DNA of 12,590 nt, taken from the NCBI GenBank assembly GCA_029856105.1, contig JAHQWH010000235.1, positions 1-12,590 on the forward strand, read 5' to 3'. Position numbers and translations under genes: made by a program. The DNA is from Promethearchaeia archaeon. Its GTDB lineage: Archaea > Asgardarchaeota > Lokiarchaeia > Sigyniarchaeales > SOKP01. Below the pieces are notes generated by a model that worked only from the letters and a program-made list of their open reading frames with translations, was not told where the DNA came from and searched no databases. Positions 57-12,590 of the stretch are shown in pieces; within the stretch, counting starts at the first letter, position 1; every line of letters begins with the position of its first letter.

Positions 57-74
57 TCAGGGGTTTTGGGGCGC

Positions 75-150
75 GAGCCCCGTGCGGGGAAACTCGCACG
101 CGGGGTTCCTAAAAGAGGAAGAGGATAATAATATCCTCTCCTTATTTAAC
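75..150 (+). ncRNA. Group II intron catalytic domain V and branch-point domain VI
   Basis: Base pairing read directly from the sequence. Branch A144 lies 7 nt from the predicted 3' splice site (AAC|TTG), consistent with the AY-ending consensus. Confidence 0.92.
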
Positions 151-1115: not shown

Positions 1116-1451
1116 TTAATCTTTTCTTAATTTCGCTTCTAATTGGTTAACTCGATTTGCTAAGATTTCTAAAAGTTCGTTTCTCTCTTCTAATTTTTGT
1201 TTTAACTCGAAATCCACTGTTTCAGGTTCTTTCTCTCGTTTTTTGCTATTGATATAAAAAAGCACGAATTCCTTAAGATCCTCAAGCATTCGAGACCGAC
1301 ATAAAAGAATTTCTTTTTTCAATTGCCTAGGTTGGACTTTTCCTTTAGCAAACTCACCAACAATGTTTTTGAGCTCAGATAGCTCGTCCTCGTCGAATAT
1401 TATTTTTTCTAGTACCTGCTCGAAATCTTCGGTTTTTTGACTTTTCGCCAT
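1116..1451 (-). CDS. Small helical protein with C-terminal coiled coil; last gene of four-gene operon
   Basis: 111-aa ORF. Its start overlaps the upstream stop (TAATG) and is preceded by a GGAGG-rich tract. Heptad pattern LKQKLEERNELLEILANRVNQLEAKL. Confidence 0.8.
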   Translation of the reverse strand: MAKSQKTEDFEQVLEKIIFDEDELSELKNIVGEFAKGKVQPRQLKKEILLCRSRMLEDLKEFVLFYINSKKREKEPETVDFELKQKLEERNELLEILANRVNQLEAKLRKD

Positions 1452-4400
1452 TAAAACGCTTCCTCCTCCTCTCCTTCTAAGTATTGCTTGAACTTAGCAA
1501 ATAGTTCCGAATACTTTTCAAAAATCTCGTTGTTATTCGTTTCTATATTATGTTCTTCGAACTTAGTCTCTTCGCATTTTATTAAAAATTCCTTTAAATA
1601 TTCTTCAGAGAACGGAAATTGTTCTATTTTTGTTATGGAACCGATAAACTTTTCTATATCGGCGCTAGTAATCGCGTAGTTAACGCTATAATAAGAATTG
1701 TATGTAGCGTGAAGGAACTTTCTCAAGAGATTCTTACCGATTTTTAGCGATTTTTCGAATTTTTCGCTTTTAACAGATTGATGCATTTTAAAATATTCGT
1801 AGTAGAAGATTGGGGCGAAATGTTCGGCAAAAGCGTTCTTTAGGTTTTTAGCGTTAATTCGTTCTCTCTGTAAAGAATTTTCGGAACTATCGGATTCCAC
1901 ATCGAGTGGTTCATACGAGACCACAGCGTTTCTTTGGGCTTCGTAGTAATCTTCTAAAGCTTCCTTGTAGTGCGGTCCGACCGCGAAAGAAGTTTGTAGC
2001 GATTCTGAACCGCTTGCTCTTTGAGGATGGCTCTCAACCAAGTATCGATGTCTTACCAAAATATCAAACGTTTTATTTTTGATCTCTTTTTCCCTTTTTT
2101 TATCTTTCGTTATTTTTAAAATGTACGGATGCAACCATTCCGTTAGCTCCTTTCTAACTTTTTGCTCGTAAAGGTTACCTACTTGGTCTAACTTTTTCAA
2201 GTTGTTTAGAAATTTTATTATCCCCTCGATTAACACGCTATACTCTCCGAAATCTTTCTGGAACAAAGTCTTTTCTGCCCTTTGGATTATTTGTTTCTCG
2301 GTGTTTTCCAAGTCGTAGCCTTGATTTCCCATGTAGGTCACTATTTCTTCCCAAGACAGTGGACTCGTTTCTCTAAAACCTTTCAAGTCGAATTCTACAG
2401 GAAAAGGTTGATAAATGTCCTCTCGTTTAACCACAGCCTCGTTTTTTTTCATGCTCTCAATGTACCTCAATTGGTAGCCTTCGTTTCTACTGTGACTATA
2501 GTACCCCGTCCCGTGAAGAGCTTCCAAGTTCATTAGAGAACTAAATACTGCGCTATCTCTTTTATCGGTCGCTTTAAAAGTAACTATGTTCTCGAAATAA
2601 TTGAACGCGTTAGGATGTATATATCTAATTTGAGAAATCGAACAGATCGTCCCAAAACCTTTTTGTACGAAAGGTTCGAGAAACTTATCGATTTTACCGT
2701 AATGCATTTTTTTGTCTAGAAAAAACCCATCGAAAAGTACATCTAAATGCGGTACAATCAAAAACTTAGGGTAATAAGTTTTGTCTGTTTTTAAGTAGTG
2801 AATAAATTTAGATATAACTACGAACGCGAAGTAGCACTGTTTGTCGTAATCCTTTACTTCCGAAAGATCTATAATTATTGTTTTGTCGTGTGTTATAAAC
2901 TCGTAAGAAGGAGTAATTTCTTGCTTCTGTTGCTGTTGGTGGTGAATGAAGCTCATATCTTGGGGAGTAAATTCCTTGAAAAATGTTAGTAGCGTATCGG
3001 TAATAGGTGACTTCTCCCACTCCTTCATGGTAGTTAGGTCTAAAATTAAAGTAGATATGTCTATATCGGGATTGCGCAAGATAGTATTTTTAAAGGTCTC
3101 GATCGTCCTCTCGTCTTTTTTGAAACATAACGCGTAAGCATCGAACATGTAGTCTAAATAGCCTGGGTTGTCTTTGTCGTAGGGAATTTCCGAATGAAGA
3201 GGGTTAATTACGAAAGTTTTTCCAAGTTTGTGGTACAAAACATTTTTCTCGTATATCGTACCTTCGAAAACGCGCATTAATTTAGACCAATTACCGGTGA
3301 AATCGAAAACTATTGAGGGATACCCCGCTCTCACGAGTTCCGCAACGATTTTCTGACACAAAACTTCTCTACTCGAATTTTTCCCGTTTGTTATTAATAG
3401 GGTGCGTAACTGCTCGAGAGTGAACCCCATTGGAACTTCGTTTTCTAAGAACTCAGTGTTTATGGTGTGCCCAATAGTAATAAAGTTGGTTAATTGTAAG
3501 GGGGAGTTAAATTCTGCGGCTAACCTCGTCTCGACTCCCTTTTTGAATTGGTCAGAAACTTCTGTTATAAACTGAAGGGTTTTTCCTTGAAACATCAAAT
3601 AGTTTAAGTGAGTACCGTTCCTCCTATAAAACTTGTTTTTGAGCGTTTCGAACAAGAGGCCTGATTCTAACTCGTTTCTTCTAAGCTGTTTTAACTCGTA
3701 AGTAACAAAAAATTGTTTAAAGCTTTTTCGCAACACCAAATTTTGACTTTTTAACTTCTGCTCTATCTCGTCAATAATCTCATAGTCGAGAGCAAGAGCT
3801 TTTAAGACTACCGAAGTAGAATAAGTTATTATTGTGCTCCAGATGCCCGAGCGAGAGTTTAGCCAATTGTTTCCATCTATAACCGATTCCGTTCTCATTA
3901 ACAATTTTTTCTGCTCTACATCTTTTAGGAACTTAAAGCCTTCTTTATCGAACTGATGGAAAGTTAAAGGGGTTAGTTGAATCGTGGTGGTAAAAGGCAT
4001 TTTTTTGTGAATGAGTGCTTCGTAATACTTACTTGCAGAGCAATAAGGCGGTGGGTGGGTGAAATACATATTGTTTATTTTTATTCCGCCTATTATTTTT
4101 CCTTCGACTTGATAAAAAATAGTCTCAGGCGCTTCTGATACATTGAAAAACTTAACATCAGAAAAGGGATCGATGATTTGGATATCGTTCGATTTAAATA
4201 ATTTGTTTTTAATTAAAAAGAAAAATAACTCGCGCCACCAAATTACTACTATTGTTATAAGAATTGTAAAAGTCGCTAAAGAATGTATTACTACGGTTAA
4301 ATTAAATGTTAAAAGCAACCGATCCAAGCATATAACAATCGCTAAAATGTAGCTTGCTTTCAACACCGTAGGGATTGTTTTTGGTTTTATCGTTTTACAA

Positions 4401-5218
4401 CTAATTTTTTTCGAGTCTTCTTCGCTTTCTATGTCTTGCTTTAAAACCGCAATTCTATAGGCTTTTATCAACTCTTTTTCGGAAAGCTGAACTATGTTAA
4501 AGTGGTGGAAGTTGGAAGCAAACGCCGATTCTAAGGAGATCGCATAATCTCGGAGCTTCTCAACCATTTTTATTAATTTTGATTCGGTAATTCTCCCCTT
4601 GATGTTGTAAAAAGTGCTGAAGTAAATTATCGTTTCAAAAGCCGAAGTTTCAGAAGTATCGCTGTTATTTCTTGATTGAAGCGATCTTTGAATTACTTGA
4701 TACGAGAACGGCACTTTGAGAGCGTGTAATCCTTTAAAAAACCGGTTTGTGTTAGCGTGAACATTTTCTGGAATAACATTTATCTTAAAAATCCGAACCC
4801 CGGTAGTGCTGAGCTCTTTGTGGTTCGTAAAAAACAACACGGACTTGTCGTATTTAGCCTGCCAAAAGATGAAGTCCCCAAATGGCTCAAATGAGCGAGA
4901 ATCAAATAAGTGGCGCAAGCTAAAGAAATTCCTGTGGAACGCCATAATAAAACTAATCGTCACAATCCCTGCAATTCCGATGGAAAGCGCGAGGTTATAA
5001 GTCGCGTATAGCACAGAGGTAAAGAATAACAGTCCTATTACTACTAAGGAAACTGCTTTGAGAATAGTCTCGCTCGTGCTAACGTCTTTGTAAGAAGGAT
5101 TTACCTTCCACACGTCTAAATAGGCGGTATTGTCTTTTTTTTCGTTAGCGTCAGTATTTGGTCTAAACTTATTATTACTGTTTGAATCGTTCAAAAAATC
5201 TCTGTATGATTTTGCCAT
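1451..5218 (-). CDS. Large membrane-anchored HerA/VirB4/FtsK-superfamily ATPase-like protein with degenerate catalytic motifs and duplicated N-terminal TM+alpha/beta modules
   Basis: 1255-aa ORF with TM hairpins at about aa 53-95 and 285-335. ATPase-fold landmarks appear in the right order: TLLITNGKNSSRE (Walker A position), GYPSIVFDFTGNW, GKTFVINPL, IIIDLSE, FLIVPHLD (Walker B position), QKGFGTICSISQ, IVTFK...D, MKKNEAVV...QPFPV. AGGTGA RBS lies 9 nt upstream. Confidence 0.8.
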   Translation of the reverse strand: MAKSYRDFLNDSNSNNKFRPNTDANEKKDNTAYLDVWKVNPSYKDVSTSETILKAVSLVVIGLLFFTSVLYATYNLALSIGIAGIVTISFIMAFHRNFFSLRHLFDSRSFEPFGDFIFWQAKYDKSVLFFTNHKELSTTGVRIFKINVIPENVHANTNRFFKGLHALKVPFSYQVIQRSLQSRNNSDTSETSAFETIIYFSTFYNIKGRITESKLIKMVEKLRDYAISLESAFASNFHHFNIVQLSEKELIKAYRIAVLKQDIESEEDSKKISCKTIKPKTIPTVLKASYILAIVICLDRLLLTFNLTVVIHSLATFTILITIVVIWWRELFFFLIKNKLFKSNDIQIIDPFSDVKFFNVSEAPETIFYQVEGKIIGGIKINNMYFTHPPPYCSASKYYEALIHKKMPFTTTIQLTPLTFHQFDKEGFKFLKDVEQKKLLMRTESVIDGNNWLNSRSGIWSTIITYSTSVVLKALALDYEIIDEIEQKLKSQNLVLRKSFKQFFVTYELKQLRRNELESGLLFETLKNKFYRRNGTHLNYLMFQGKTLQFITEVSDQFKKGVETRLAAEFNSPLQLTNFITIGHTINTEFLENEVPMGFTLEQLRTLLITNGKNSSREVLCQKIVAELVRAGYPSIVFDFTGNWSKLMRVFEGTIYEKNVLYHKLGKTFVINPLHSEIPYDKDNPGYLDYMFDAYALCFKKDERTIETFKNTILRNPDIDISTLILDLTTMKEWEKSPITDTLLTFFKEFTPQDMSFIHHQQQQKQEITPSYEFITHDKTIIIDLSEVKDYDKQCYFAFVVISKFIHYLKTDKTYYPKFLIVPHLDVLFDGFFLDKKMHYGKIDKFLEPFVQKGFGTICSISQIRYIHPNAFNYFENIVTFKATDKRDSAVFSSLMNLEALHGTGYYSHSRNEGYQLRYIESMKKNEAVVKREDIYQPFPVEFDLKGFRETSPLSWEEIVTYMGNQGYDLENTEKQIIQRAEKTLFQKDFGEYSVLIEGIIKFLNNLKKLDQVGNLYEQKVRKELTEWLHPYILKITKDKKREKEIKNKTFDILVRHRYLVESHPQRASGSESLQTSFAVGPHYKEALEDYYEAQRNAVVSYEPLDVESDSSENSLQRERINAKNLKNAFAEHFAPIFYYEYFKMHQSVKSEKFEKSLKIGKNLLRKFLHATYNSYYSVNYAITSADIEKFIGSITKIEQFPFSEEYLKEFLIKCEETKFEEHNIETNNNEIFEKYSELFAKFKQYLEGEEEEAF

Positions 5219-5227
5219 TTTTTATAA

Positions 5228-6082
5228 TCACCTATTATTAAAATAAGTTTTATTTACGAAATATAGCACAACGATGGCCCCAAAACAAATGAGTAAGTTG
5301 TAGCTAATAGCCACAGATAAGAATCCGTACATTAAAGCCTCAATTAAAGATACGGTACCAACCATGGCAAACAAAATTATAATCCCGATAACTAAGAATT
5401 GCCCAACATGTTCCTTTGATTGCTTGTAAGAAATATTGTCTTTTAACGACCCCGATATAACGATTTTTCCACTTTTTTTTTGCTCGATACCTTTCCTAAT
5501 GGTTTTAAGTTGTAGAATTTTCTCAAATGTGTTCTTGTCGAATTTTTTATTTAGTTGATATTGAAGCGATTTTTCTTCTTCTTTAAATTTGTGAAGCAGA
5601 ATTGGGTTAAACAAGTTTTCTTTTTTATGTTTTGCTTTTTGACCACCCGATAAGAAAGAAAATAAGGAGATCGTGCGATTCCTATCTATAGACTCCGGAT
5701 TTATGTTGTCATGTAAGTTAGGAACATCTAACTTGCGAAGTTCGTAATATATTTCGAAAATTTCTTTAATATATTCTAAACGAAGCTCCCCTTCTTTTTT
5801 CAGGAATAAAAGTTCTATTCTCTTTAATATGTTGATAAATTCTAGTCTAAACACATCAACGCTAAAGTTTACCCTAAAAACCTTGTTTATGAGCTCCATG
5901 TATTCAAATATTTTTTCCCCTGAGTTTTTCTCTCTTGGGCGCATTCCTAATTTGATTCCAATTTCGTCGACTGTGTTGCTCGTAAGCACGAAGCTTACTA
6001 CAGCTAGCTTTTTATAATTGCGAGTTTCTTTACAGAGCTGAATCAAACGTTTGAGCTTTATGTCTAACAATTGCTCTTTCAC
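5228..6082 (-). CDS. Hypothetical membrane protein: soluble helical N-domain plus C-terminal TM hairpin (GTG start)
   Basis: 284-aa ORF starting 1 nt after the upstream stop. Two hydrophobic segments at the C-terminus (FLVIGIIILFAMVGTVSLI; AISYNLLICFGAIVVLYFV). Confidence 0.8.
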   Translation of the reverse strand: MKEQLLDIKLKRLIQLCKETRNYKKLAVVSFVLTSNTVDEIGIKLGMRPREKNSGEKIFEYMELINKVFRVNFSVDVFRLEFINILKRIELLFLKKEGELRLEYIKEIFEIYYELRKLDVPNLHDNINPESIDRNRTISLFSFLSGGQKAKHKKENLFNPILLHKFKEEEKSLQYQLNKKFDKNTFEKILQLKTIRKGIEQKKSGKIVISGSLKDNISYKQSKEHVGQFLVIGIIILFAMVGTVSLIEALMYGFLSVAISYNLLICFGAIVVLYFVNKTYFNNR

Positions 6083-6083
6083 T

Positions 6084-6842
6084 TTATCTTTTTCGCCCCC
6101 GAACTAATAAGAAATCGTCGTAAATCTTTTCTGCTTCGCTTTTAATTGTCGAAACCTCTTTTAAGGAATCGTTCGTAGATTCTAGTTTCAACTCTTCTCG
6201 AGCTATTAACTTGTCTAAATCCAAATCTTCTCGAGTGCTATTGATATATTGATTAATCTTATTTTCCACGCTGTTTTGTTCTTTTTCAAAAGTATTTATT
6301 ATTGAATGATTGAACATAGCGTAAGGAAAAGTACAAGCGAACGAGATTAGTTGGAGAAAGTATCCAGGACCTAACGAGTAGCTTAAGGTAATTTCTAATT
6401 CGTAATTGTAATAAACTAAAAAAGGGTAGTAAAGTCCATTAGGGAGCAAGAAAAACAACGGGTAGATTAAAACAAAAAAACCAATTAAAGTTAACAAAGA
6501 TAAGTTGACGAACCCGAAATTCTTTAATCTAGAAAGGTTTTCTTTGCGTTCCGCGTCGAGAAATAACGCCGAATAAGCGGACAATAAAAGAACGACTAAG
6601 AAAGCGATAACAATGGCAATAGGCAAGGAAGCGTTGTTAGGCTCGTAAAAATCGTTAATGCCGGCGCCTTGAGAAAACGCGGTGCTCCAATCAAACAACA
6701 CGTTGTAAACCCAAGATATCACGACCTCGCCAGAATCGTTTACTCCTTGAAAGTAATACCAATCCAAAAAGACTGAAACAAAACCGAACAGTAGACCAAT
6801 CATAAAAATAATTTTGTATCCTGATTTAAAATATATCGTCAT
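6084..6842 (-). CDS. Four-TM integral membrane protein with charged helical C-terminal tail; first gene of operon
   Basis: 252-aa ORF with four hydrophobic segments. TM1 ends in FLDWY and TM4 is preceded by YSLGPGYFL, followed by a hydrophilic tail of about 70 aa. Confidence 0.82.
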   Translation of the reverse strand: MTIYFKSGYKIIFMIGLLFGFVSVFLDWYYFQGVNDSGEVVISWVYNVLFDWSTAFSQGAGINDFYEPNNASLPIAIVIAFLVVLLLSAYSALFLDAERKENLSRLKNFGFVNLSLLTLIGFFVLIYPLFFLLPNGLYYPFLVYYNYELEITLSYSLGPGYFLQLISFACTFPYAMFNHSIINTFEKEQNSVENKINQYINSTREDLDLDKLIAREELKLESTNDSLKEVSTIKSEAEKIYDDFLLVRGRKR

Positions 6843-9506: not shown

Positions 9507-10403
9507 ATGAATGTGGTAGAGATGAAAAATCAAAGGAATTCCAAATTTTATAAGGATGTAACCCCGAAACTTTATCAACGCCTTGTGGATTATAGAAAAA
9601 ATCATCCCATAAAAACTATTAAGTTCAGAAATAAGGAACTAGAATATATTAGCTGTGGAACTGGTGAAAAAACAGTTCTTACCTTTCATGGAGCACTTGG
9701 AAATGCCGAGGGTAATTTTCAAGCTATACAATTTTTTGAAAAAAAATATAGGGTTATCGCCCCTTCAATTATCAATTTTGAAAGTTTGGATGAATTTAGT
9801 GAAGGAGTGAATGATATTCTAAAAAAAGAATATGTGAAAAAATATATTTTAATAGGTCAGAGTTTTGGAAGTTTTATGGCTCAACCGTATTTCCATAGAA
9901 ATTATTCAAATATAGAGGCGCTTATTCTTGTCAATAGTTATCCTCCAAAATATGAATGGGTAAAAGATTTTGAAAAATCGAATAAGATGCTTAAATTCAT
10001 ACCGGCTTTTCTATTAAGGAAGTTGATATCAAAAAAACTTTTAAAATTAGCCAATGAAGATAAAGAAATGAGTACTAGAATTCGGGAGGAGTATAATTTT
10101 TCAATGGCATTTATAAAAGAAAGATTTAGTAAAATAGAGAAAAGTGTTATATTATTCCAATCAATTCTCACAGGTGAATTCAATGGTGAAAAATACAATA
10201 TAGAAGATTATTACGGGTGGGATGGTAAAGTTCTTATTTTTACGGCAAATGATGATCATGGATTTCCTTATCATGAGGAATTAAAAAGTCAATATCCTAA
10301 TGTGGAAGAAGTAATATTTGAGAATGTAGGGCATATGGGCACTTTGCTTAAAAGAGATGAATATCATGCTATTTTGAACAGATTTTTAGATTTATTAAAT
10401 TAA
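9507..10403 (+). CDS. Alpha/beta-fold hydrolase
   Basis: FHG oxyanion motif, GQSFG nucleophile elbow, candidate acid in TANDD, catalytic His in NVGHM. Confidence 0.92.
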   Translation: MNVVEMKNQRNSKFYKDVTPKLYQRLVDYRKNHPIKTIKFRNKELEYISCGTGEKTVLTFHGALGNAEGNFQAIQFFEKKYRVIAPSIINFESLDEFSEGVNDILKKEYVKKYILIGQSFGSFMAQPYFHRNYSNIEALILVNSYPPKYEWVKDFEKSNKMLKFIPAFLLRKLISKKLLKLANEDKEMSTRIREEYNFSMAFIKERFSKIEKSVILFQSILTGEFNGEKYNIEDYYGWDGKVLIFTANDDHGFPYHEELKSQYPNVEEVIFENVGHMGTLLKRDEYHAILNRFLDLLN

Positions 10404-10626
10404 AAAAATTTAGATTCTTCTCGTTGTATTTCAAATAGAGCAATTTTCGTAATTTATCAAAAAAACAATTTTTTATTTAAATAAGGTTATCGGATTAGTT
10501 AATAGATATACTATTTTAACAAAGTTTTTGTCAAATTAAAGCCCCCAAAACACCCAGTGTTGTTATAAACAAGTCTCCCCTTGCTGTTTCTGACGAGTAA
10601 GGCATGCAATTAGACAAAAACGACTC

Positions 10627-10644
10627 TTTTTTTCCTTTATATTT
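10627..10644 (+). repeat. Direct repeat copy 1 (TTTTTTTCCTTTATATTT), left flank of methyltransferase gene
   Basis: 18/18 identical to 11325-11342. Both copies are followed by GAACAT (after 8 extra nt in copy 1). Confidence 0.6.
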
Positions 10645-10689
10645 ATTATATTGAACATCTAGATTTTTAGAGGGAAAAAAATAATTCTT

Positions 10690-11244
10690 TTATTGATTCT
10701 TTAAATAATTTAAAATTAAAGAGTCTTCAATCCATGCCCAGTGGAACATAGGTCTTTTAAACTCTGCATTAAAATACAAACCATTTGCTTTCATTTTATT
10801 ATGAATTTTATCCAAATTAAAGTGTTCATTTCCTCCTCGGTGTGTTGCATGATATGATACAAATCCTCCTTTTATCAAAACTCGGGATGCTTCCATGAAT
10901 AATTTATTTCTCTCATCATCATCTAATAAATGAAGGATATCATACATCAACACGACATCCATAGATTCATCAGATAAAGGGAATTCAATCTCACCTGAGG
11001 TCTTGATGATTTCTATGTTTTTTATTTTTTCTTTTTCTATTTTGCTAATTAAATCTCTAAGCAAACCTTCCTCGTCTGAATCTAAGGCATAAACTTTTCC
11101 AGAACCACCAACAATCCTAGAAGCGAACACGGTATACACTCCAGTTCCACATCCAAAATCTAAGATTTGCTGTCCCTTCTTTATTCCTATTTCTCGAAGG
11201 ATTATTTCCCCTTCTTTATCCATCCAATCTTGTAAATGTGTCAT
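10690..11244 (-). CDS. Class I SAM-dependent methyltransferase
   Basis: ILDFGCGTG motif I, VYALDSD acidic motif, FPLSDESMDVV, ASRVLIKGG. Confidence 0.93.
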   Translation of the reverse strand: MTHLQDWMDKEGEIILREIGIKKGQQILDFGCGTGVYTVFASRIVGGSGKVYALDSDEEGLLRDLISKIEKEKIKNIEIIKTSGEIEFPLSDESMDVVLMYDILHLLDDDERNKLFMEASRVLIKGGFVSYHATHRGGNEHFNLDKIHNKMKANGLYFNAEFKRPMFHWAWIEDSLILNYLKNQ

Positions 11245-11473: not shown

Positions 11474-12590
11474 GTGCAAGACGAAAGGATCCTTCGAGTA
11501 CTGTTTGAGCTAAAAATATTTAAATTGCGAGAAATCCAGAAAGAAGCGATTCAGAAGGGATTGTTTTTTCAAAAGTCTTTTTTAGTGTGTGCTCCCTCTG
11601 GAAGCGGTAAGACCTTAATTGGAGAAGTGTGTGCCGTAAACAATGTATTTCAAAGGTTTGGCAAATCTATCTATCTCGTACCATATAAAGCTTTAGCCAC
11701 CGAGAAATATTTTCATTTTAAAAAAAGCTACGAGCGGTTTGGAGTTAAAACCGAATTATCGATCGGCGATTATGATGTGGATGACGACAAGTTAGAACAA
11801 GCAGATATAGTAGTAACCACTTACGAAAAGATGGATTCGATTCTTAGAAATTTTTATGATAAAGATTGGATTTTCGACATCACTACTATAATTATTGATG
11901 AGATACATATAATTGGAGAGTCCGATCGAGGCCCGCGCTTAGAATCTCTTATAGTGAGAATGAACGAATTCTTACGCAACCCACAAATTATCGGACTTTC
12001 GGCAACCATCGCAAATCCTGAGTTTTTTAATGATTGGCTCTCTTCTTTAGGAAATCAAACGACACTTATTATCTCGGACGAACGACCGGTACCGCTCCAC
12101 TATAGAATTGAAGTGAGTCAAAACAAAGATTCTACCATTAAAAAAATAGTTAAATCAACTTTAGAGGATCGCGGTCAGATATTAATATTTCTAAACAGAA
12201 GGAAGGCAACCCAACAAGTCGCTCAGAACTTAAAAAACTTAATAAAAGTACACATCTCCGAAAACGAGCTAAAAGCGTGTAAAAATATAGGCGATAAACT
12301 CAACAAGATTAAGGGAAGGCATAACGAGCTAAAGAAGGTCGTAAAGTGCGGGGTTGCGTTTCATCACGCGGGATTACTTTCCAAAGAAAGAAGACTCATT
12401 GAGGACGCTTATCGGAAACACATGTTAAAAGTTATATGCTGTACTACCACTTTAAGTGCGGGCATAAATGTCCCTGCTCGGGTGGTGATAGTAAAAGACT
12501 TCAAAAAATATGTTACTTCAGGACACAACATAAGAAATTTTAAGGGCTTTTATGAAAACGGAGACGGATTTTCCTACTTTAAAGCTTTTT
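11474..12590 (+). CDS. Ski2/Hel308-like SF2 DExH-box helicase (partial, runs off window end; start uncertain, frame open from 11399)
   Basis: Not in the supplied ORF track; translated by hand. Q motif LREIQKEAI, I APSGSGKT (11591), Ia VPYKALATEK, Ib TTYEK, II DEIH, RGPRLE, III GLSAT, RPVPL, IV IFLNRRK, FHHAGL, V CCTTTLSAGINVPA. First in-frame GTG is at 11474. Confidence 0.93.
   Translation, partial: MQDERILRVLFELKIFKLREIQKEAIQKGLFFQKSFLVCAPSGSGKTLIGEVCAVNNVFQRFGKSIYLVPYKALATEKYFHFKKSYERFGVKTELSIGDYDVDDDKLEQADIVVTTYEKMDSILRNFYDKDWIFDITTIIIDEIHIIGESDRGPRLESLIVRMNEFLRNPQIIGLSATIANPEFFNDWLSSLGNQTTLIISDERPVPLHYRIEVSQNKDSTIKKIVKSTLEDRGQILIFLNRRKATQQVAQNLKNLIKVHISENELKACKNIGDKLNKIKGRHNELKKVVKCGVAFHHAGLLSKERRLIEDAYRKHMLKVICCTTTLSAGINVPARVVIVKDFKKYVTSGHNIRNFKGFYENGDGFSYFKAF

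Follow-up and report, generated by a model that had tools for sequence, protein, structure and literature searches.

Why would a lineage of archaea keep a large protein that has the fold of an ATPase but not the canonical motifs of its nucleotide site? The question is raised by P0001, a 1255-residue protein encoded at 1451..5218 on the minus strand of contig JAHQWH010000235.1 from a Promethearchaeia archaeon (assembly GCA_029856105.1), a 12,590-nucleotide stretch that we analysed as a whole and refer to as the window; it is AT-rich, with a GC content of 0.28-0.40. The initial annotation, made from the sequence alone, had described the protein as a pseudo-ATPase of HerA/VirB4/FtsK fold with all catalytic motifs eroded, and had suggested that an adjacent helicase could supply the motor. 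The 275 homologs of P0001 are all unnamed or "hypothetical" and come from Loki-, Hermod-, Thor- and Hodarchaeota records, and the literature we searched (full text, in a limited collection) yielded no description of the family or of its linkage to the helicase Hel308. Scans of P0001 against Pfam and NCBIfam (E up to 0.1), PADLOC and PHROGs gave no match, and in Pfam and NCBIfam this includes CagE_TrbE_VirB, AAA_10 and DUF87. We computed the fold and domain order of the protein, the replacement of its motifs, the selection acting on it, the conservation of its operon and its linkage to Hel308. Our best reading, held with modest confidence, is that P0001 derives from VirB4, does not hydrolyse ATP and serves at the membrane as the scaffold for a complex that handles DNA and cooperates with Hel308.

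What kind of protein this is can be approached through its ATPase-like C-terminal domain (C-domain; aa 560-960, window 2339..3541, minus strand), which we modelled with AlphaFold2 (AF2) over aa 556-1130 from a 96-row alignment. The model has a mean predicted local distance difference test score (pLDDT) of 80.9 and a predicted template modelling score of 0.76, with the P-loop and Walker B regions above a pLDDT of 95. Foldseek against the PDB matched it to Sulfolobus solfataricus HerA (E 1.1e-11), to several Sir2-HerA and DUF4297-HerA complexes, and to DndH-C, VirB4 and TrwB. Pairwise alignment with VIA-align gave Z 24.5 for DndH-C (321 residues aligned), 24.4 for VirB4 (4ag5; 331 aligned), 24.0 for HerA (4d2i; 321 aligned) and 21.7 for TrwB (349 aligned), with FtsK and EccC at Z ~13. 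Searched as a single sequence with phmmer, P0001 found nothing among PDB sequences; HerA was reached only with a family profile of 35 members, which matched the HerA of E. coli Sir2-HerA at E 8e-7 over the stretch from Walker B to the sensor. The proposed fold is thus borne out at Z 21.7-24.5, and as modelled the C-domain belongs at fold level to the FtsK-HerA superfamily, with a RecA-like core and HerA/VirB4/TraG-type insertions. The structural landmarks that had prompted the proposal are present as well: IVFDFTGNW at 3287-3313, INPL at 3197-3208, IIIDLS at 2861-2878, IVTFK at 2573-2587 and EAVV at 2429-2440.

What has become of the nucleotide site depends on the motif register, which we fixed with hmmalign on 145 representative relatives taken from the top 150 of a search of 1.84 billion proteins. 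Two relatives with canonical motifs, P0267 ("AGITGSGKT ... VVEEAH") and P0269 ("AGSTGTGKT ... IVEESH"), match the columns of "TNGKNSSRE ... IVPHLD" in P0001 one for one, so the register is set by homology. The strings read in the initial annotation are where it had placed them, the rewritten Walker A as LLITNGKNSSRE (aa 607-618; 3365-3400, minus strand) and the rewritten Walker B as FLIVPHLD (aa 819-826; 2741-2764, minus strand). N611 stands at the position of the first Walker A glycine, R617 at that of the lysine and E618 at that of the serine or threonine; P823-H824 stands at the Walker B acidic pair, and HerA "LLLEEAH" falls on the same columns in the profile-to-PDB alignment. Among 102 full-length homologs the Walker A consensus is LLI[TV]NGxxxSRE (NGKNSSRE in the window), with N611 kept in 99, G612 in all 102, R617 in 101 and E618 in 90, and the long-form Walker B, hhhhP[HN]hD, is kept in the same 102. 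The "GK" of NGKNSS is accidental, since K613 is a threonine in 66 of the 102. Across the aligned representatives the lysine column holds Arg in 97/130 and Lys in 6/130, and the D826 column holds Asp or Glu in 110/130. The phosphate-binding loop of P-loop proteins is about seven residues long; in P0001 two of its three glycines are lost, and the model shortens it, DSSP assigning a strand at aa 606-610, a three-residue loop and then a helix. The arginine finger had been read as QKGFG (aa 852-856; 2651-2665), a reading that is right in that no Arg occurs in either register and one residue off in its placement: in the HMM alignment HerA "GRKYG" falls on F850-G854, with V851 at the Arg position, and this column is R or K in 35/128 representatives. 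Two arginines further downstream, R911 (122/127) and R932 (114/126), are near invariant.

P0001 thus lacks the marks of an FtsK-HerA enzyme, GxxGxGK[ST], hhhhD[DE] and the arginine finger, and an intact GxxGxGK/DE is absent from 102/102 full-length homologs and from nearly all of the 145 representatives. The pseudo-ATPase reading has thus passed both of the computable checks named in the initial annotation, on the predicted fold and on the motifs of the orthologs. The description of all catalytic motifs as eroded holds in so far as the canonical motifs are gone, but the alignments indicate that they were replaced by a new conserved set and not randomly eroded. Strong purifying selection on the domain points the same way: dN/dS is 0.155 for the C-domain against an 82%-identical ortholog, and in more distant orthologs, where synonymous sites are saturated, the nonsynonymous proportion pN is only 0.15-0.18. 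Judged from these comparisons, the nucleotide site is selected and remodelled, not decaying. We infer from the motifs that ATP hydrolysis is lost, and ATP binding is probably lost as well.

The region ahead of the C-domain identifies the protein more closely. P0001 opens with a transmembrane (TM) hairpin at aa ~48-96 (4931..5077, minus strand, as are all parts of the gene), followed by a first N-domain at aa ~100-285 (4364..4921), a second TM hairpin at aa ~284-337 (4208..4369) and a second N-domain at aa 336-560 (3539..4213), the hairpins being assigned from hydropathy segments. An AF2 model of the second N-domain, made from a 61-row alignment, has a pLDDT of 93.6, and in Foldseek it has TrwK/VirB4 chains in every one of its first eleven ranks (best E 1.8e-4). 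In a scan of 48,161 chains made independently of Foldseek the same domain matched TrwK residues 21-402, the N-terminal domain of TrwK, at Z 11.5 (185 aligned, root-mean-square deviation 4.1), with the runner-up chain at Z 7.0. A VirB4-type N-domain ahead of an ATPase-like core makes P0001 specifically VirB4-like, and on the strength of these models we therefore take it to be of VirB4 type. VirB3 is fused to VirB4 in some systems, where it lies ahead of the VirB4 N-domain, and this is the position that the first hairpin of P0001 occupies. In the ESM Atlas the cluster closest to P0001 is named "DNA import protein CedB family" (score 0.97), which serves as a lead only.

The N-domain is duplicated. 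Other Asgard archaea encode it as short TM proteins of 220-300 aa, and these are matched by the P0001 profile of aa 100-285 as well as by that of aa 340-560, at E 1e-5 to 1e-15 (1e-7 to 1e-15 for the copy 1 slice); in the 61-row alignment the short-form proteins fell on copy 1. Because both slices match the same proteins, copies 1 and 2 are homologous to one another, and P0001 reads as two homologous units of TM hairpin plus N-domain in tandem. Behind the ATPase-like core lies a probable winged-helix domain at aa ~1018-1098 (1925..2167), whose predicted order of helix-helix-strand-strand-helix in the AF2 model is collinear with the C-terminal winged helix-turn-helix (wHTH) of the short forms, for which there are Pfam HTH_24/PadR matches. 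The gene closes with a helical extension of aa ~1100-1255 (1454..1921) that is confined to long forms and has no short-form counterpart.

How widely is this arrangement shared? Our C-domain query was found in 137/400 Asgard genomes, among them 97/134 genomes of the window's taxonomic family, and a second P0001-family member was not found in the window's own genome. A profile search of 1.84 billion representatives returned 2813 proteins with a cutoff of E 1e-3 and 621 with one of 1e-10; source names among the relatives include Promethearchaeota and Sigynarchaeota, canonical Walker relatives first appear at E ~1e-24, far down the representative search, and a regular-expression search for a canonical Walker A in distant relatives found none. 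In the single Bathyarchaeia-named match the P-loop is degenerate and lacks the Arg, and the Walker B is the canonical DEAH.

Several forms of the protein can be told apart. In the window's family it is double-fused (~1255 aa), with the P-loop NGxxxSRE and the Walker B PH.D. A second set of double-fused proteins (1240-1270 aa, 23-27% identity) occurs in the Lokiarchaeum-like family f3, which includes closed genomes of 6.04 Mb and 4.32 Mb, and has P-loops such as "LAGDNHRQN" and Walker B strings "LPHLH" or "LPALD". Single-fused proteins of ~770-850 aa, with one TM hairpin, one N-domain and the C-domain, have the P-loop GG[ST]xx[EQ]R and a Walker B pair that is mostly acidic, some of the proteins having it displaced or degenerate (D.xD, PExD, IEDxx); their taxon is known for P0234 only, which is from Sigynarchaeota. 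In other Asgard classes the protein is split between an N-domain gene, whose 220-300-aa product has an N-terminal TM segment, and, directly downstream, a gene for a 506-535-aa C-domain-wHTH protein with the same GG[ST]xx[EQ]R and a D[DE] Walker B. The split and single-fused forms of other Asgard classes also lack GK[ST]. By this comparison the Lys-to-Arg P-loop is common to every form but that of f3, and the long forms have gone further, losing the Walker B acids too. Two or three complete copies of the cluster, 70-73% identical, are present in some genome bins (G249 on contigs C12, C20 and C49; G242 on C32 and C68). Every copy checked has its own Hel308, the two G249 copies examined also have ThiF, and contamination of the G249 bin is 9%; these look like mixed strains rather than paralogs, so that the copy numbers do not suggest gene duplication.

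P0001 does not stand alone. It follows a 252-aa four-TM protein (6084..6842, minus strand), the first gene of a tight run of four, and a 284-aa protein with a C-terminal TM pair (5228..6082, minus strand), which are separated by 1 nt; the latter lies 9 nt upstream of P0001. After P0001 comes a 111-aa coiled-coil protein (1116..1451, minus strand), whose ATG overlaps the P0001 stop codon (TAATG). A fifth gene, P0005 (7547..9415, minus strand), encodes 622 aa with an N-terminal helix-hairpin-helix module, (HhH)2 (Pfam HHH_5, E 1.5e-11), and a TM hairpin. The whole set of five occurs in 11/14 wide loci of the window's family, and a twelfth, L067, has all but the adjacent coiled-coil gene; singly, the 284-aa, 252-aa and P0005 genes are each found in 12/14 and the coiled-coil gene in 11/14, with partner identities down to 20-40%. 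Except for the HhH of P0005, the four partners have no informative match in Pfam, NCBIfam, PADLOC or PHROGs. The cluster holds no canonical active ATPase partner, and six canonical DUF87/HerA-like ATPases lie on other contigs without linkage evidence.

Some details of these neighbourhoods vary. The coiled-coil partner, which contains no His in the window, has ~300 aa in the close relatives L001, L003, L059 and L061, to which the 111-aa protein aligns only partially, at 31-40% identity. Two short-form loci from different families have a NifH/frxC-family P-loop gene directly after the pseudo-ATPase-wHTH gene (L037:6308-7186, plus strand, genome G006; L043:2803-3729, minus strand, G005; Pfam Fer4_NifH, E 1e-96 to 1e-100), and this neighbour might be an active NTPase partner. 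Near the beginning of the window, positions 73-150 (plus strand) match domains V/VI of a group II intron over the full length of the Rfam model Intron_gpII, with 53.8 bits where the gathering score is 40 and an E of 1.8e-8; the body of the intron would be upstream, beyond the window edge.

If P0001 has lost its own hydrolysis, where might energy come from? The helicase of the initial annotation is Hel308, whose 5' part is encoded at 11474..12589 (plus strand; NCBIfam Hel308 models, E 2e-90) and runs off the window. It is not adjacent here: the two genes are divergent, their starts 6.2 kb apart with five open reading frames between them. The linkage, on the other hand, is kept across Asgard classes, which gives the idea of a helicase partner comparative support. 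In ~60 genomes of the window's family a P0001-family gene is found on the same contig as Hel308, mostly at 5-9 kb and in a few at 14-30 kb, and the distance from a short form to a Hel308-like gene is 2.4-8.6 kb in families f5, f7, f10, f11, f19 and f21. Because related genomes are not independent, our argument is based on recurrence in seven families and not on how many genomes show the linkage. In two of these families, in genomes G005 and G006, the helicase, small TM, N-domain and C-domain genes form one operon, contiguous and co-directional, and in L060, L064 and L066 Hel308 and the HhH gene are immediate neighbours that diverge across a gap of 255-650 bp. ThiF is also conserved in the neighbourhood within the genus. 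In f3 the Hel308 ortholog lies 14-25 kb from the P0001-family gene.

Two further observations concern this region. Between the HhH gene and Hel308 the window has an alpha/beta-hydrolase gene (plus strand) and an S-adenosylmethionine-dependent methyltransferase gene (minus strand), together at 9507-11244, which are absent from all other compared loci and where GC is lowest (0.28-0.29), consistent with later insertion. In the 6.04-Mb genome of f3 the long form (locus L034) lies 2-4 kb from a Hef-like helicase/nuclease (L034:11637-13784, minus strand; NCBIfam E 3e-124) and a Hel308-like superfamily 2 helicase (L034:13859-16000, plus strand; E 2e-43), so that the family has another, distinct kind of neighbourhood with repair helicases.

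How might such a protein work? We propose that P0001 goes back to a VirB3-VirB4 unit of the kind found in type IV secretion systems (T4SS) and conjugation-like machines, and that it has become fixed in the chromosome and catalytically inactive. It may form a membrane-attached oligomer, as does VirB4, which assembles as a hexamer (a trimer of dimers) at the inner membrane. With a hairpin for each anchor and no signal peptide, it would expose its soluble domains to the cytoplasm. There it could serve as the scaffold of a complex with the four-TM, two-TM, coiled-coil and membrane-anchored HhH proteins, and this complex might hold or pass DNA, or DNA-bound partners, at the inner face of the membrane. 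The system contains predicted DNA-binding modules, namely the HhH of P0005 and the wHTH of the short forms. Hel308 would be the energy-using partner, supplying ATP-driven translocation. In this proposal the fold, domain order and gene linkage are computed, and what we infer is inactivity, oligomeric state, DNA as the substrate and physical coupling to Hel308.

Several points weigh against a non-hydrolysing scaffold paired with Hel308. Among the neighbours, Pfam and NCBIfam recognise no VirB2, VirB6 or other T4SS component. The winged helix assigned to the long form rests on a weak hhalign match to the short-form wHTH (E 0.0014, probability 17%). The link to Hel308 is one of synteny, not of interaction; in f3 the helicase is 14-25 kb away, and the counts come from genomes that are not independent of one another. 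Finally, other P-loop ATPases often go on binding nucleotide when their Walker A Lys is mutated to Arg, and since the short forms also keep an acidic Walker B, a nucleotide-binding switch is possible.

Such a switch is the main rival, and we regard it as unlikely. Here P0001 would be a non-canonical nucleotide binder, a slow NTPase or an ATP-bound switch, with Arg617 in place of the P-loop lysine and Glu618 or Asp826 as the metal ligand. Replacements as nearly invariant as R617 (101/102), E618 (90/102) and the acidic D826 column (110/130) speak for a working site, the hhhhD[DE] motif survives in the short forms, and the strand-loop-helix geometry is predicted at a pLDDT above 95. Yet the P-loop keeps one of its three glycines and is predicted to be three residues long, both Walker B acids of the long form have given way to Pro-His/Asn, the arginine-finger position lacks an Arg, and no Pfam P-loop model detects the C-domain. 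The absence of enzyme motifs has a more trivial potential explanation, a decaying pseudogene or mis-called reading frame, which is almost certainly wrong: it has nothing to commend it beyond those missing motifs, and it is opposed by a 3.8-kb frame that is open throughout, as initially noted, and by folds of high confidence. The same substitutions in 102 full-length homologs, together with the dN/dS of 0.155, led us to reject it, in keeping with the initial view that this is not decay.

It is also conceivable that the cluster does not belong to the host's own machinery. An integrated plasmid or virus with a degenerate DNA-transfer apparatus, of the conjugation/T4SS or the Ced/Ted type, would account for the VirB3-VirB4-like build and the membrane-protein neighbours, and both the bins with two or three copies and the intron remnant at 73-150 could be read that way. 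We consider this quite improbable: the chromosomal neighbourhood stays the same from one genus or class to another, with Hel308 present throughout and ThiF within the genus, 97/134 genomes of the family carry the gene, the GC of the cluster resembles that of its flanks, library scans gave no integrase, relaxase, pilin, PHROGs or PADLOC match, and the G249 copies, each with its own Hel308 and ThiF, fit a mixed-strain bin. Slightly less probable still is a role in anti-virus defence like that of the HerA/DndH systems (Sir2-HerA, DUF4297-HerA, DndFGH), with P0001 as the sensor or scaffold and its HerA-like ring controlling an effector. DndH-C and several defence HerA complexes are indeed among the top structural matches. 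However, no protein of the cluster matches PADLOC, the window partners have no nuclease, Sir2 or HEPN signature and the 111-aa protein has no His, the N-domain of P0001 matches the VirB4 type, and the stable synteny with housekeeping repair genes is unlike that of defence islands.

Returning to the scaffold that works with Hel308, a wider version of it is tempting, and we put it forward only tentatively, as something that may well not hold in full. The family could represent a vertically inherited Asgard membrane machine, derived from a T4SS VirB3-VirB4 unit, in which the machine's own motor has been switched off and Hel308 has taken the energy-using role. A pseudo-VirB4 ring with wHTH, HhH anchor and small TM proteins might then tether or move DNA where the membrane faces the cytoplasm, in split, fused and double-fused forms across the phylum, and its possible roles would include DNA exchange, fork rescue at the membrane and chromosome anchoring. 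What we describe appears to be a VirB4/HerA-fold protein turned pseudo-enzyme, of known fold class and new in its architecture and context. If our interpretation is correct, the VirB4 architecture is useful beyond ATP hydrolysis, in a large conserved lineage without the catalytic motifs, and the family offers a clean natural case of a Lys-to-Arg P-loop under selection. It is among the better conserved "hypothetical" membrane proteins of Lokiarchaeia, with relatives in other Asgard classes. For Hel308/HELQ-type helicases, which have a poorly defined cellular setting in archaea, it supplies a concrete partner that can be tested.

How does P0001 compare with known systems? In T7SS EccC, degenerate domains of the FtsK-HerA superfamily are retained as structural or regulatory modules. 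EccC, at Z ~13 in the fold list, resembles P0001 in having a RecA-like domain without canonical catalysis, but in EccC an active domain accompanies the degenerate ones within each chain, whereas the sole such domain of P0001 is degenerate and its cluster has no active paralog. HerA shares the fold of the ATPase domain (Z 20-24.5), is the best PDB match of the sequence profile (E 8e-7) and is likewise linked to DNA repair, as is the neighbourhood of the P0001 family. It differs in having a HAS-barrel N-domain, where the domain ahead of the core of P0001 matches the VirB4 type, and P0001 is membrane-anchored and without the catalytic motifs, with NurA, Sir2 and DUF4297 not found in the window by Pfam or PADLOC.

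VirB4 is, to our knowledge, the one ATPase common to all type IV secretion and conjugation systems. VirB4/TrwK/TraC proteins, like P0001, have a VirB4-type N-domain followed by a C-domain of FtsK-HerA fold, a TM hairpin at the VirB3 place and an association with the membrane. In P0001, by contrast, Walker A, Walker B and the arginine finger are replaced, the unit of TM hairpin and N-domain is duplicated, and the protein carries in addition a probable wHTH and a helical tail of 150 aa; the gene is chromosomal and syntenic with Hel308, and sequence scans recognise no VirB2, B6, B8 or B10 among its neighbours.

The closest archaeal analogues of P0001 seem to be CedB and TedB of the Ced/Ted DNA-import systems. 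CedB/CedD (Sulfolobales) and TedB (Thermoproteales) are domesticated VirB4-like proteins of archaea, encoded with small and polytopic membrane proteins, and are described as ATPases that drive the import of DNA (PMC9905601). They come from a different phylum, and the P0001 family lacks the motifs; in addition, neither a pilin like CedA1/TedC nor a channel like CedA/TedA (a CedA-like protein of 6-7 TM segments) was detected here by sequence (Pfam, NCBIfam), and P0001 is linked to Hel308, not to HerA/Rad50. Parts of the VirB4 N-domain of these systems can be spread over two polypeptides (PMC11868833), which resembles our short forms, where the N-domain has a gene of its own. The Ced and Ted systems establish that domesticated VirB4-based machines for the exchange of chromosomal DNA exist in archaea (PMC9905601).

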